Positions 2,320 through 52,490 of a DNA stretch of 64,000 nt are shown here, one piece after another. The stretch's first letter is position 1, and every line of letters begins with the position of its first letter. The translations under genes were made by a program, and so were the position numbers. The notes under the pieces were generated by a model that saw nothing but the letters and a program-made list of their open reading frames with translations, searched no databases and was not told where the DNA came from. The stretch comes from Candidatus Taylorbacteria bacterium RIFCSPLOWO2_12_FULL_43_20 (lineage in GTDB: Bacteria > Patescibacteriota > Minisyncoccia > Phycocordibacterales > HO2-43-120): positions 11,801 through 75,800 of the forward strand of contig MHSK01000006.1 of NCBI GenBank assembly GCA_001821295.1. Reading direction: 5' to 3'.

Positions 2320-2358
2320 TATTCGCGTGCACTATTCGTTAAGCGGTATCTACATTGA
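2320..2358 (+). repeat. Repeat family C copy 1 (attcgYgtgcactWttcgttaagcggtatctac)
   Basis: Shares about 30 bp with copies at 46905-46935, 50288-50318, 50350-50390, 50943-50976 and 52453-52490, all in the same orientation. Confidence 0.75.
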
Positions 2359-28526: not shown

Positions 28527-28784
28527 TTATTTATACGACATTCCGCCGCGGTGGCCTATTTCTAAGATTTTTACGATTTTTTCTTTCTTTTCTATTTGGT
28601 AGATAATCCGGTACGGCCAGACTCTGACTTTCCTTTTTCCTTTAAGCTTTCCTTCCATGGGACTGCCGACGAGCGGATTTTCGGCAATGATTCCCAGTGT
28701 CTCAATGATCCGACCTTGCCACGGTTGTGGAATTTTTTTCAACTCCTTCTTTGCGCTATTAGCAATATAGACACTGTATGGCAT
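28527..28784 (-). CDS. Type II toxin, RelE/ParE family (start taken at the internal MPYSVYI)
   Basis: …WQGRIIETLGIIAENPLVG…VWPYRIIYQIEKKEKIVKILEIGHRG matches the RelE/ParE C-terminal signature. Confidence 0.75.
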   Translation of the reverse strand: MPYSVYIANSAKKELKKIPQPWQGRIIETLGIIAENPLVGSPMEGKLKGKRKVRVWPYRIIYQIEKKEKIVKILEIGHRGGMSYK

Positions 28785-28785
28785 A

Positions 28786-29148
28786 TTATTTCTTCTTCTT
28801 ATGCCTGGTGTTCTTCGTCTCCTTATTTTTTTTATCACTTTTCTCCGCAACCACTGAATAACCCTTTCCGGACTCGTATCTCAACTCTTTTTTCAATTTT
28901 TCCAATGTTACATATTCTCCCCTCTTAAACTCATCCTCCGCTTTCTTGATCTTATCCATAAACTCAGGGTCGCCTAGTATTTCCATATCTTCCATAATAT
29001 CCTCAAAGTCGCTCGCGGACATAAGCACGGCTTTTGGCCTTCCTTTTTCTGTGAAGGTGTAATAATTATTCGGTTTTTGCACTTCCTCGGCTATATCAAA
29101 TATTTTTTTTCTCGCCTCGGAAATTGAAATGGTTGTTTTGGCTTTCAT
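28786..29148 (-). CDS. Type II antitoxin, Phd/YefM family
   Basis: TISISEARKKIFDIAEEVQKPNNYYTFTEKGRPKAVLMSASDFEDIMEDMEIL is a typical YefM fold sequence. Lies directly upstream of the toxin. Confidence 0.75.
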   Translation of the reverse strand: MKAKTTISISEARKKIFDIAEEVQKPNNYYTFTEKGRPKAVLMSASDFEDIMEDMEILGDPEFMDKIKKAEDEFKRGEYVTLEKLKKELRYESGKGYSVVAEKSDKKNKETKNTRHKKKK

Positions 29149-29310
29149 AGTAGATATCGCTTAACGAAAAGCGCACACAAATAAAGTCCCGCGGTGACAC
29201 TCTTCAATTTATATGTACATAATAGCGTACATCGTGCAACGATGCAAGTTTACGGCTGTAAAAAACCCGCCAAGTGTGGCGGGTTTGTGAGGATAGCAAC
29301 TGGATACGAC

Positions 29311-33231: not shown

Positions 33232-33464
33232 TTTTTAATGTGTAATAAAATTATTATATCATCATTTTCGTTACTGCCGGCCAGGGACCATGAATACATT
33301 TCTCTCCCTCGACTCTCGTCGTGCCGTCGCACTCCTCGGTCTGGGCACCAGCTCGTCTGTTTTTTCTACTGAAAAAACATGACTCCGCTGTTCTCGTCCC
33401 TACGCGAGTGAAGCAGTTCACTCGCTGGCCGGCAGCAAAGCCTTTCGCTTCGCTCATTGCTTTA

Positions 33465-33535
33465 CTGCCGGCCAGGGACTCGAACCCCAATACCCGCCTC
33501 CAAAGGGCGGTGTCCTACCATTAGACGAGCCGGCA
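33465..33535 (-). tRNA. tRNA-Gln (anticodon UUG)
   Basis: Minus-strand sequence TGCCGGCTCGTCTAATGGTAGGACACCGCCCTTTGGAGGCGGGTATTGGGGTTCGAGTCCCTGGCCGGCA(G). Perfect 7-bp acceptor stem with U1:A72 and G73 as in bacterial tRNA-Gln. Anticodon stem CCGCC/GGCGG, loop CTTTGGA. Confidence 0.85.
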
Positions 33536-44195: not shown

Positions 44196-44900
44196 ATGCC
44201 TTACAAAGCGGATTGGAATAAATACGTCATCTCATTTGTTATCACCTCGTTTATATTCTTTACGGCCATAGTTTTGAGCTGGCATTTCAACAATAGAAGA
44301 CTGGTGAATGTACGCGCCATTGAGGATAAAATTTCCATTGATATTTTGTCTTCAGAAACCCAGTTTTCACTGTTGGCTGAATCTTCATGCAAAGATGTCA
44401 ACACTACTTTTTTATTCCAGGAGCTTAATTCTCTGGCAGAAAAAATAGAGTACAGTGAACAAAATTTAAGAGGCAGCGAAGAGATAATCAGCTTGAAAAA
44501 ATACTACTCACTGCTTCAGATCAAGGACTATCTCCTCATGAAGAAGGTCAGTGAGAGATGCCAGCTTGACCCTATATTCATAATTTATTTTTATTCCAAC
44601 AAGGACAATTGTCCGGACTGCGCTAGACAAGGATACGTTCTCACATCACTTAGAGATAAGCATCCGGAACTCAGAGTGTACTCATTTGATTACTTATTGG
44701 ACTTATCCGCGCTCAGAGCTCTCATATCCATTTACAAAGTGCCTGATACTCTGCCGGCTTTGGTCCTTGATGAAAAAACTTACACCGGATTCAAATCAAT
44801 TGAGGAGATAGAGAAAATAATCCCTGAATTGGCCGAGAAGGCCACATCGACGCCCGCCGTATCCGAGAATGAAAAACCAGCCACCAAAGGAAGAAGATGA
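44196..44900 (+). CDS. Hypothetical membrane-anchored protein with CPDC motif
   Basis: One N-terminal TM helix. CxxC could indicate a thioredoxin-like fold. Weak. Confidence 0.35.
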   Translation: MPYKADWNKYVISFVITSFIFFTAIVLSWHFNNRRLVNVRAIEDKISIDILSSETQFSLLAESSCKDVNTTFLFQELNSLAEKIEYSEQNLRGSEEIISLKKYYSLLQIKDYLLMKKVSERCQLDPIFIIYFYSNKDNCPDCARQGYVLTSLRDKHPELRVYSFDYLLDLSALRALISIYKVPDTLPALVLDEKTYTGFKSIEEIEKIIPELAEKATSTPAVSENEKPATKGRR

Positions 44901-46749: not shown

Positions 46750-46868
46750 CCGCAATTTACGATATTTAGCCATAGTAAATTTTAAGTGCGGCACCGCAGG
46801 GCATTAAACCCTGCGGGCCATCCGACTCTACCCTGCCAAAGCCCAGGATGTTCCCCATTCGTATCTAT

Positions 46869-46908
46869 CCCCGACGCTTCGGTCGGGGCTCCGACCGAAG
46901 CGTCGGAG
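46869..46908. repeat. Repeat family I copy 1: hairpin cgacgcttcggtcgg-ggctc-ccgaccgaagcgtcg
   Basis: Related copy at 50854-50895 (acgcttcggttgg-ggctcc-aaccaaagcgt). Followed directly by a family C copy (46905-46935) and the perfect palindrome ggctcacacacgtgtgtgagcc (46935-46956). Confidence 0.75.
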
Positions 46909-46982
46909 TCGTTAAGCGGTATCTACTATAAACGGCTCACACACGTGTGTGAGCCATTCAGTTTAATTTATCTACTCGTCAA

Positions 46983-47043
46983 CCCTCCCACGGTTCAAGT
47001 CCTTGAGGAGTTCACTCATCCGATTCGTGAGCCACCTCTCGGA
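46983..47043. repeat. 61-bp perfect direct repeat, distal copy (proximal copy 47134-47194 overlaps the tRNA-Thr 3' end)
   Basis: ccctcccacggttcaagtccttgaggagttcactcatccgattcgtgagccacctctcgga appears twice, separated by 90 bp carrying two small hairpins (ttgaaaacccaaggttttcaa and cggggaactcccgttccccg). Confidence 0.9.
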
Positions 47044-47180
47044 ATTTCACGTCGCTTTGCTCCTTGAAAACCCAAGGTTTTCAACGCTCGAAGACTCGCT
47101 CTTTCCTACACGGGGAACTCCCGTTCCCCGACCCCCTCCCACGGTTCAAGTCCTTGAGGAGTTCACTCATCCGATTCGTG

Positions 47181-47253
47181 AGCCACCTCTCGGACTTGAA
47201 CCGAGGACCCACGCTTTACAAAAGCGTTGCTCTACCAACTGAGCTAAGGTGGC
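47181..47253 (-). tRNA. tRNA-Thr (anticodon UGU)
   Basis: Minus-strand GCCACCTTAGCTCAGTTGGTAGAGCAACGCTTTTGTAAAGCGTGGGTCCTCGGTTCAAGTCCGAGAGGTGGCT. 7-bp acceptor stem, anticodon stem ACGCT/AGCGT, loop TTTGTAA, T-arm CTCGG-TTCAAGT-CCGAG. Confidence 0.88.
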
Positions 47254-50287: not shown

Positions 50288-50390
50288 ATGCGCTATCCGT
50301 TAAGCATATCTACATAAAGAACGCTGTCGTAGAGCTATGGAGCATTCCTTATTCGTGTGCACTTTTCGTCATGTGGTATCTACTATAAAC
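50288..50390 (+). repeat. Two tandem family C copies (50288-50318 and 50350-50390) between rpmE and prfA
   Basis: gcgctatccgttaagcatatctac and attcgtgtgcacttttcgtcatgtggtatctactataaac. Confidence 0.7.
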
Positions 50391-50853: not shown

Positions 50854-50976
50854 CTTAACGCTTCGGTTGGGGCTCCAACCAAAGCGTCAAAGTCGCACAT
50901 TTGTATCTTTTATTACTAACAACTATTGACTATCAACTCCCCCATGTGCGCTACTCGTTAAGCAGTATTTACAATG
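50854..50976. repeat. Composite: family I copy 2 (50854-50895) plus family C copy 5 (50943-50976)
   Basis: Same I-then-C arrangement as at 46869-46935. Confidence 0.7.
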
Positions 50977-52404: not shown

Positions 52405-52490
52405 GAACTTACACAGTTGGATGCAGTTCGAGGCATGCCCGCAGGTCTCTCTAGTTCGTGTACTCTATTCGTTAAGCGGTATCTGCTTAT
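52405..52490 (+). repeat. Partial family B 5' end (52405-52434) followed by family C copy 6 (52453-52490)
   Basis: gaacttacacagttggatgcagttcgaggc then ctctattcgttaagcggtatctgc. Confidence 0.65.

Follow-up and report, generated by a model that had tools for sequence, protein, structure and literature searches.

The 64-kb stretch of Candidatus Taylorbacteria bacterium RIFCSPLOWO2_12_FULL_43_20 analysed here (contig MHSK01000006.1; hereafter the window) carries short inserts directly behind its genes for tRNA-Thr(UGU) and tRNA-Gln(UUG), each bracketed by partial copies of the tRNA that it follows. With about even confidence, these inserts and their relatives are interpreted as miniature, non-autonomous elements with a structured RNA core and a specificity for tRNA 3′ ends, the 61-bp direct repeat at tRNA-Thr being their duplicated junction module. 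The observations that carry this interpretation are the repeat itself, filled and empty alleles in one population, homology of the spacer between the repeat copies to an insert in a second genome (locus L039), recurrence of the bracket at tRNA-Thr, tRNA-Gln and tRNA-Ser, covariation with a strand bias in the core type termed S1, and hybrid elements that join parts of different inserts.

Transfer RNA genes were located with ARAGORN and Rfam. The tRNA-Thr locus is laid out as follows, in descending order of coordinate except for the composite unit and the flanking region, which are given last.

47181-47253, minus strand: tRNA-Thr(UGU), complete (low-coordinate end at 47180 or 47181 in the ARAGORN and Rfam calls; RF00005, 69.5 bits).
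47134-47194, minus strand: repeat copy A1, 61 bp, made up of the 14-nt tRNA 3′ end (47181-47194) and a 47-nt trailer, which consists of an 11-nt loop CACGAATCGGA (47170-47180), a 35-nt inverted segment (47135-47169) and one further G.
47044-47133, minus strand: spacer B, 90 bp, core of an element of core type S2, with hairpin 1 (47111-47130), a conserved GAGTCTTCGAGCG segment and hairpin 2 (47064-47084).
46983-47043, minus strand: repeat copy A2, 61 bp, identical to A1, with a displaced copy of the tRNA 3′ end (47030-47043) followed by loop and inverted segment (46984-47029).
46983-47133, equivalent to 47044-47194, minus strand: the 151-bp unit that is present in some assemblies and absent from others, its boundary not being placeable inside the 61-bp identity.
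46754-46982, minus strand: region C, downstream of A2 and present in both filled and empty alleles, with a 22-bp perfect palindrome (46934-46955), a promoter-like repeated motif (46909-46929), a 40-nt hairpin (46869-46908) and a further hairpin (46790-46819).

The initial annotation had placed a tRNA-Thr(UGU) here on the minus strand, a perfect 61-bp direct repeat made of 14 nt of its 3′ end and 47 nt of trailer, and a 90-bp segment with two hairpins between the copies; ARAGORN and Rfam agree on the tRNA, and the remaining features and all their coordinates proved correct. The direct repeat extends over 64 nt with one mismatch (46983-47046 and 47134-47197), of which 61 nt are perfect, and the two copies start 151 nt apart. 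At up to three mismatches, the 61-bp sequence occurs exactly twice in the window, against an expectation of zero from 100 dinucleotide-preserving shuffles. In tRNA sense it begins at the last T of the T-loop, where crossovers classically occur, and the final 14 nt of the tRNA are termed X below. Within the trailer, 35 of the 47 nt form an imperfect inverted copy of the tRNA-Thr T-arm and acceptor 3′ strand, the best 21-nt stretch of which (inverted repeat I2) is 86% complementary to the T-arm, the remaining part being accounted for by the 11-nt loop and the further G. The order of the locus is tRNA(X) - loop - inverted copy - B - X - loop - inverted copy - C, which amounts to 1.4 copies of the 151-bp unit in tandem. 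The tRNA itself, beside a direct repeat that carries its 3′ part, is intact; CCA is not encoded, the sequence running on from ...GGCT into CACGAA. The flanking genes are housekeeping genes, with tsf, rpsB and a peptide-chain release factor on one side and glycosyltransferases on the other, and no gene is called in the 90-bp interior between them in any annotation. The plus-strand open reading frames (ORFs) at 46786-47067 and 47003-47242 that overlap the repeat are spurious and remain uncalled in every public annotation.

In exact-protein look-ups the flanking genes were found to recur in many other assemblies of the same population, and most of the loci fetched from it are 100% identical to the window over 6-20 kb, so that the population is nearly clonal. 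The filled allele was found in the window and in the NCBI metagenome-assembled genome (MAG) record GCA_001820825.1 (contig MHRB01000010.1, from the Rifle aquifer; L001), which belongs to the same population, differs from the window at three positions and ends before it. In at least four other assemblies the flanks, 99.8-100% identical, enclose exactly one 151-bp unit fewer; they read tRNA - A - C, so that B does not lie next to A in the empty allele. These are an ENA scaffold (L002), one JGI contig (fetched twice, L003 = L007), a MEGAHIT k141 contig (L005) and a second JGI contig (L006); the exact absence was established by alignment for L002 and L003, and the single repeat copy in L005, L006 and L007 by coordinates and BLAST. 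The presence or absence of the unit is not linked to the three flanking single-nucleotide differences, as the filled L001 shares its alleles with the empty L002, L005 and L006. Gain or loss of the 151-bp unit is therefore real and, given a nearly clonal population with exact empty sites, recent, in agreement with one of the two possibilities that had been drawn from the identity of the repeat copies. A larger insert at the same site in related strains, which had been proposed as a check, did not appear between the flanking genes at any of the places shown by two flanking-gene look-ups (23 contigs each).

Over 12.4 kb, the window differs from the NCBI record by no other substitution than these three, at 44882, 44890 and 48140. 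Two of them lie 8 nt apart where two genes overlap, one is a Leu to Met change in EF-Ts, and all fetched assemblies with called bases at these positions have the other allele. Exact-protein look-ups of the window EF-Ts and of the ORF at 1283-1876 returned nothing on record.

Beyond the population, 80 loci of relatives were fetched through EF-Ts at 63-70% identity. The gene order tsf - small ORF - tRNA-Thr(UGU) is kept in approximately 70 of these 80, most of which have a plain trailer or an ordinary terminator after the tRNA and no insert. Spacer B, which is unique within the window, is homologous to positions 6185-6268 of L039, with 85% mean column identity in the trimmed alignment. In L039, the tRNA-Thr gene is followed by a 12-nt loop, a perfect 14-nt inverted copy of the tRNA 3′ end, ATGAGCCACCCGTC, the B-homologous core and a second, direct copy of that end, 13 nt long. 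Covariance model R2, for which both cores served as training sequences, gives them 96.8 and 104.6 bits and finds no further copy in 762 kb. When read directly from the two sequences, which align in different registers, both hairpins contain compensatory stem changes: hairpin 1 is CGGGGAAC/GTTCCCCG in B and CAGGAAAAC/GTTTTCCTG in L039, with G:C replaced by A:U at two pairs, and hairpin 2 is TTGAAAACC/GGTTTTCAA in B and TTGGAAAACC/GGTTTCCAA in L039, with A:U replaced by G:C. Judged from this comparison, B is a conserved, structured core shared with another genome and not debris, and the earlier description of the enclosed segment as a possible decayed remnant does not hold for a sequence with such a homologue.

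The other core type, S1, is represented in the window by an insert behind tRNA-Gln, found when the trailers of loci L011 and L013 were compared with the window by BLAST.

33465-33535, minus strand: tRNA-Gln(UUG), by ARAGORN and Rfam, the second window tRNA with a bracketed insert.
33288-33464, minus strand: the insert behind tRNA-Gln, by alignment, RNAalifold and model R1 (144 bits).
33425-33441, minus strand: right arm of a 17-bp hairpin formed with the tRNA-Gln 3′ end, containing the tRNA-Gln 5′ acceptor strand.
33303-33428, minus strand: S1 core, about 126 nt, including the inverted T-arm-like AGGGACGAGAAC at 33390-33401.
33271-33287, minus strand: 17-nt direct copy of the tRNA-Gln 3′ end, TCCCTGGCCGGCAGTAA, the original of which lies at 33462-33478.

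The isolated Gln insert folds at -88.1 kcal/mol (z=-7.5), and its paired ends reproduce the acceptor stem of tRNA-Gln. The S1 cores behind tRNA-Gln in the window and behind tRNA-Thr in L011 and L013 align, with three helices whose stems covary in RNAalifold, and these three sequences were used to build covariance model R1, so that the 144 bits given to the Gln insert are the score of a training sequence. The model also recovered further copies. L063 has a divergent S1 behind tRNA-Thr (44 bits, E=8e-8), and L011 a second, partial S1 in tandem with the first. In nine contigs of the window's own population (L107-L115), an S1 behind tRNA-Ser(GGA) scores 82 bits and is closed by 17 nt that repeat the tRNA-Ser 3′ end. 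In a six-sequence S1 alignment, 94% of the cells are paired compared to 35-43% with slid partners, and 27 of the 39 pairs are changed on both sides, a number reached in none of 500 shuffles. The pairing on the tRNA-sense strand contains nine G-U or U-G cells and no A-C cell, which assigns the structure to that strand, and on this pattern of substitution it would most simply be that of an RNA. The window Gln insert itself has the three covarying helices, lies on the same strand directly after its tRNA, and ends in a copy of the tRNA 3′ end.

Searches of Rfam returned only tRNA in the window at the gathering threshold, and nothing beyond tRNA in the Gln region at E<=10 or in L011, L013 and L045 at E<=1. 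A group I intron or known self-cleaving ribozyme was considered and rejected, there being no Rfam covariance match to either; the published group I introns of Patescibacteria tRNA genes sit elsewhere, in the anticodon loop at position 35/36 (PMC13011429). The ten HtpX-tRNA-Ser contigs that were fetched (L107-L116; 19 read) are all <=5.3 kb long, which suggests that assemblies break around the S1 element or around local strain variation.

Across these loci a common arrangement is apparent. The inserts, of about 115-190 nt and of the two core types S1 and S2, sit in Patescibacteria directly behind tRNA genes and on the same strand, with S1 following tRNA-Gln in the window, tRNA-Ser in the same population and tRNA-Thr in L011, L013 and L063. 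At the start of each bracket the 3′ part of the host tRNA is present as an inverted copy; at its close stands a 13-20-nt direct copy of the tRNA 3′ end, which starts in or next to the T-loop. The direct copies are specific to their host, scoring 17-18 against it and at most 7 across isoacceptors, and the inverted copies are likewise host-specific at least for tRNA-Gln, L039, L076 and the window tRNA-Thr. Near-identical S1 cores lie behind three different tRNAs of one genome, with ends that match each host tRNA, and the Ser and Gln copies share 45 identical nt. Spread between loci, and not just local duplication, is required to account for these near-identical cores with host-matched ends.

When the 3′-terminal 12 nt of 82 ARAGORN calls were searched for in the flanks of the respective call, a direct or inverted copy of the 3′ end was found downstream of ten calls, whereas upstream there were three direct copies and no inverted ones; a tandem array in L045 supplies all three of the upstream matches and four of those downstream. 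The genomes that bear elements are scattered over a rough EF-Ts tree, and at one and the same site L011 has an S1 core and its sister genome L039 an S2 core. This patchy distribution, together with the tandem copies and the filled and empty alleles, is indicative of turnover rather than stable vertical inheritance. In L076, the inverted and direct copies stand alone, joined by a GTAA loop into a bare hairpin, and where the direct copy departs from the tRNA it does so by C-to-T changes, so that G-U pairs with the inverted copy are kept. In L063, positions 1395-1460 of the minus strand form a near-perfect palindrome of approximately 30 bp, composed of the tRNA-Thr 3′ end, a 6-nt trailer, an intrinsic-terminator hairpin and an inverted copy, and it looks as if it had been extended by snap-back synthesis from the terminator. 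In L045 (2214-2643; Patescibacteria MAG JAGYLJ010000001.1), four 89-bp units stand head to tail behind the tRNA-Thr gene; all are degenerate copies of tRNA-Thr in which the T-arm and the acceptor 3′ strand are complete, and ARAGORN labels them 'tRNA-Ser(act)'. With regard to expression, no minus-strand terminator was found between tRNA-Thr or tRNA-Gln and the end of its insert, and each of the two tRNAs has a promoter-like site upstream, so that the inserts are likely to be co-transcribed with their tRNA.

Hybrid S1 elements were observed where some contigs of the window's population lose synteny. At the start of MEGAHIT contig ERZ4903055:k141_2509988 (L090 1-1400), tRNA-Ser is followed by an S1 element of Ser type on the left and Gln type on the right, the right part including the terminal tRNA-Gln copy, next to which comes the gene located behind tRNA-Gln in the window; the crossover falls within the 45-nt block identical in both elements. 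At the other end of this contig (L120 3380-3680), the S1 element behind tRNA-Gln changes over after GAGCTGGTGCCCAGACCGAGG into another copy, whose terminus is the 3′ end of a third tRNA. The crossovers of the hybrids fall in the conserved GAGCTGGTGCCCAGACCGAGG block, a core block of approximately 21 nt, and about 74 kb, with most of the window, lies between the two hybrid elements. Among the contigs read, 4 of 11 and 8 of 24 have a hybrid arrangement (shown and grouped places); in the matched arrangement, tRNA-Gln and the gene for a 166-amino-acid protein are adjacent. A simple two-arc swap among three elements was rejected as a description of k141_2509988, as the 10-kb stretches that other contigs add past the two window ends contain neither a tRNA nor an S1 match. 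Chimeric assembly at the 45-nt repeat is conceivable for the hybrids, although the final k of 141 exceeds 45 nt.

No integrase, resolvase or DDE transposase was found among called genes or by Pfam (Phage_integrase, Resolvase, rve) in window coordinates of approximately -9 to 11 kb and 22.7-73 kb, or on reading by eye in approximately 11.3-22.7 kb, and none of the genes called within about 10 kb either side of the tRNA-Thr site is an integrase or recombinase. There is also no cognate gene of an IS110 bridge RNA or an IS605 omega RNA (reRNA) next to any of the eight loci. Scans of viral contigs with the 47-nt trailer, a 31-mer of B, the S1 core motif and the S2 motif gave no matches; a looser S1 pattern gave 16 viral matches, none of which fits R1 or lies near a tRNA, and these were set aside as chance. 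By BLAST, the Thr and Gln regions had no relevant counterpart in phage and plasmid records, the sole match being one of 28 nt in Cupriavidus that is ascribed to chance. Two scans of metagenome_contigs gave no matches either, but a control 30-mer from JGI 3300002105|C687J26635_10000809 (L003) was also missed, and the result consequently says nothing about these samples. Overall, the insert family could not be found in the databases searched.

The one transposase-like gene, for a 226-amino-acid Y1_Tnp protein (IS200-like, PF01797, E=1e-9), lies at L126 3352-4032, approximately 0.6-1.3 kb past the high end of the window, between gatB and gap and in the same place in all assemblies. Copies of a hairpin, GAGGAGGCT(C/G)A(A/G)CCTCCTC, occur on both sides of this gene and once inside it, a layout like that of a repetitive extragenic palindrome (REP)-associated tyrosine transposase (RAYT) with its own REP sequences, which is unusual for a Patescibacteria genome. 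An origin of the inserts from this system was rejected, the REP sequence GAGGAGGCTNANCCTCCTC having no match in the window at up to two mismatches and being unrelated to the inserts.

Under the interpretation of the inserts as miniature elements, the 151-bp unit (X, loop, inverted copy and B, in any circular permutation) is a discrete element. It would be gained or lost by recombination within the 61-bp identity. Conservative recombination at the T-loop and 3′ end, of the kind known from attachment (att) sites, would insert the element and regenerate the tRNA, a step that would yield the direct repeat and permit tandem accretion, with the recombining enzyme supplied in trans. The core would be kept as an RNA structure whose ends are paired, through the inverted and direct tRNA copies, into a helix resembling the acceptor and T-stem. 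Insertion by site-specific recombination, an RNA-level function of the inserts and the direction of the 151-bp event, gain or loss, are what we infer on this basis. The two kinds of tRNA copy point either to an attachment site, folded or guided, or to a handle for tRNA-like processing. A bolder version, in which S1 and S2 constitute a new class of mobile element homing to the tRNA T-loop and 3′ end, with the inverted copy as guide or folded att site, partner exchange at the core block and an RNA capped by an acceptor/T-stem mimic, is speculative and on present grounds doubtful.

Several considerations weigh against the interpretation as miniature elements. About eight loci are known in all (two S2 and about six S1), and no recombinase or nuclease gene adjoins any of these eight, the neighbours being housekeeping genes. 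Viral, phage and plasmid collections contained no copy of repeat or spacer, and neither a circular nor an extrachromosomal form was seen there. The isolated S2 unit folds no better than shuffled sequences (z=-1.25), and the six-sequence S1 alignment had been fitted to model R1 itself. Region C, possibly a degenerate S1 element, matches R1 at 46866-46958 with 16.6 bits and E=0.27, below significance. The filled alleles possibly all come from one laboratory's assemblies and the empty ones all from other pipelines. With regard to the mechanism, a double-stranded circle of 151 bp is a physically awkward substrate for integration, the perfect identity of the 47 trailer nt needs an extra assumption (the same donor trailer, or gene conversion), and a plain att model does not explain the inverted tRNA copies.

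An unlikely but substantial alternative is that the inserts are trailer RNAs of the host tRNAs which arose by local inverted and tandem duplication, without mobility, and whose tRNA copies are kept as a closing helix. Such an acceptor/T-stem-like helix could serve RNase P, RNase Z or the CCA-adding enzyme as a handle, and the 61-bp repeat would be a 1.4-copy tandem duplication of the kind seen at E. coli tyrT, lost by slippage or unequal exchange. The S1 covariation and sense-strand G-U bias, which point to an RNA under selection, are as expected for such trailers, as are the Gln insert whose paired ends copy the tRNA-Gln acceptor stem, the palindrome of about 30 bp in L063, the bare GTAA-looped hairpin of L076 with its C-to-T changes that keep G-U pairs, the four tandem tRNA-like units of L045, and the lack of a recombinase among genes called near the loci. 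Purely local origins, however, are difficult to reconcile with near-identical S1 cores behind three tRNAs with host-matched ends and 45 nt identical between Ser and Gln, with the majority of relatives having no insert at the syntenic tRNA-Thr, and with the different cores at one site in the sisters L011 and L039. Further, B is absent after A in the empty allele, so that simple tandem duplication of resident sequence cannot make A-B-A from A-C.

It is rather improbable that the inserts are remnants of tyrosine-integrase islands, i.e. of the cis-mobilizable element (CIME) kind, reduced by internal deletion, in which the 61-bp copies would be attL and attR and the empty allele the product of excision in trans. 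The att-type reading of the initial annotation survives in part here: the tRNA 3′ end lies in the repeat, the repeat starts at the T-loop and an empty site exists, whereas no integrase was found, inverted copies are present and the bracket recurs at tRNA-Gln and tRNA-Ser. [quoted passage not shown] Independent remnants, however, would not share a complete, size-conserved and covarying structure across tRNAs and genomes. There is in addition no integrase in or near the window, no larger occupied site among the places shown by the two look-ups, and no similarity to the phage, plasmid or viral contigs searched. An att reading predicts neither the inverted tRNA copies, nor covarying cores, nor recurrence at three tRNAs with host-matched ends.

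It is very improbable that an assembler created or removed the 151-bp unit at the 61-bp repeat: the filled allele is confined to the window and L001 and the empty one comes from MEGAHIT, JGI and other scaffolds with otherwise identical sequences, but B has an independent homologue in the L039 insert, in the same position between inverted and direct tRNA copies, and contigs labelled k141 by MEGAHIT (final k=141, read from the naming) span tRNA-A-C, which would need k-mers that cover the 61-bp repeat and both flanks, so that the empty junction should be present in the reads.

Two further features of the window were noted. A motif, ATAGTAGATACCGCTTAACGA, occurs at six intergenic sites with 0-3 mismatches and is mostly followed by a similar A-rich stretch (..GCACACGAATAA..).

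2336-2356, minus strand: ATAGTAGATACCGCTTAACGA site.
29147-29167, plus strand: ATAGTAGATACCGCTTAACGA site.
46909-46929, minus strand: ATAGTAGATACCGCTTAACGA site.
50366-50386, minus strand: ATAGTAGATACCGCTTAACGA site.
50955-50975, minus strand: ATAGTAGATACCGCTTAACGA site.
52469-52489, minus strand: ATAGTAGATACCGCTTAACGA site.

Four of these sites lie 40-210 nt upstream of minus-strand genes, and the motif is probably a shared promoter or leader; a sigma-70-like match at 46925-46953, with TATAGT as -10 hexamer, overlaps it, and one copy, which no gene follows, falls within region C of the tRNA-Thr locus. At 28527-29148 on the minus strand lies a gene pair for an antitoxin (Phd/YefM) and a toxin (ParE), the Pfam families being those of the public gene calls.

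Patescibacteria have tiny genomes with few recognised mobile elements. Structured inserts that are absent from Rfam would be a new source of plasticity in this group and, if the bolder version given above is true, elements that swap partners at the block of approximately 21 nt would reshuffle the sequences beside tRNA genes and so promote structural variation in otherwise clonal, tiny genomes. Presence/absence variation and hybrid recombinants are here seen amid identity over tens of kb. The family would be a testable case of a non-coding element that targets tRNA genes. Partial tRNA copies of this type can also mislead tRNA annotation and break metagenome assemblies.

Among known systems, the order of target copy, inverted copy, element and target copy recalls the CTX phage attP, integron attC sites, the guides of group I and II introns and the IS110 bridge RNA. 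As in guide-bearing systems, part of the element is complementary to target sequence lying to either side of the insertion point, although this is a resemblance only. In contrast to folded-site and guide systems, there is no Xer, integron-integrase, IS110 or reverse-transcriptase gene nearby and no Rfam intron match. Miniature inverted-repeat transposable elements (MITEs) and REPINs (paired REP sequences, moved by RAYTs) are similarly small, non-coding, hairpin-rich, multi-copy and recombinogenic, and a RAYT-like gene lies just beyond the window; unlike REPINs, all of the insertions seen are at tRNA 3′ ends, and the terminal repeats copy the host tRNA and not the element.

The E. coli tyrT locus reportedly contains 178-bp tandem repeats, a finding attributed to Egan and Landy in 1978. 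An RNA, rtT, is encoded behind tyrT (Bosl and Kersten 1991, as cited in PMC2965389). There too, direct repeats with the last tRNA nucleotides lie behind the tRNA, the units being co-transcribed with a small RNA as by-product. The present inserts differ in having no Rfam RtT match, and in their occurrence at several tRNAs with host-matched ends, inverted copies and strain variation.

Integration into tRNA genes is an established source of partial tRNA 3′ copies (PMC9897764), and repeats that start at the T-loop are described at tRNA integration sites (Williams 2002, as cited in PMC9897764). Integrase-less elements that retain attL and attR, and their tandem accretion, belong to the ICE/IME systems (PMC5704250). 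The att repeats of tyrosine integrases and CIMEs resemble the present inserts in having a tRNA 3′ end in the repeat, the T-loop start, an intact tRNA, filled and empty alleles, and tandem accretion (L011 and the window). The inserts differ from tyrosine-integrase elements in being only 90-175 nt long without an integrase or similarity to a known element, in their covarying RNA core and inverted tRNA copy, and in the window Thr repeat running 47 nt past the tRNA. No recognisable homology in phage, plasmid and viral records links them to decay from an ICE or IME, but formally the definition of a CIME does fit, as the repeats are present and enclose no genes.

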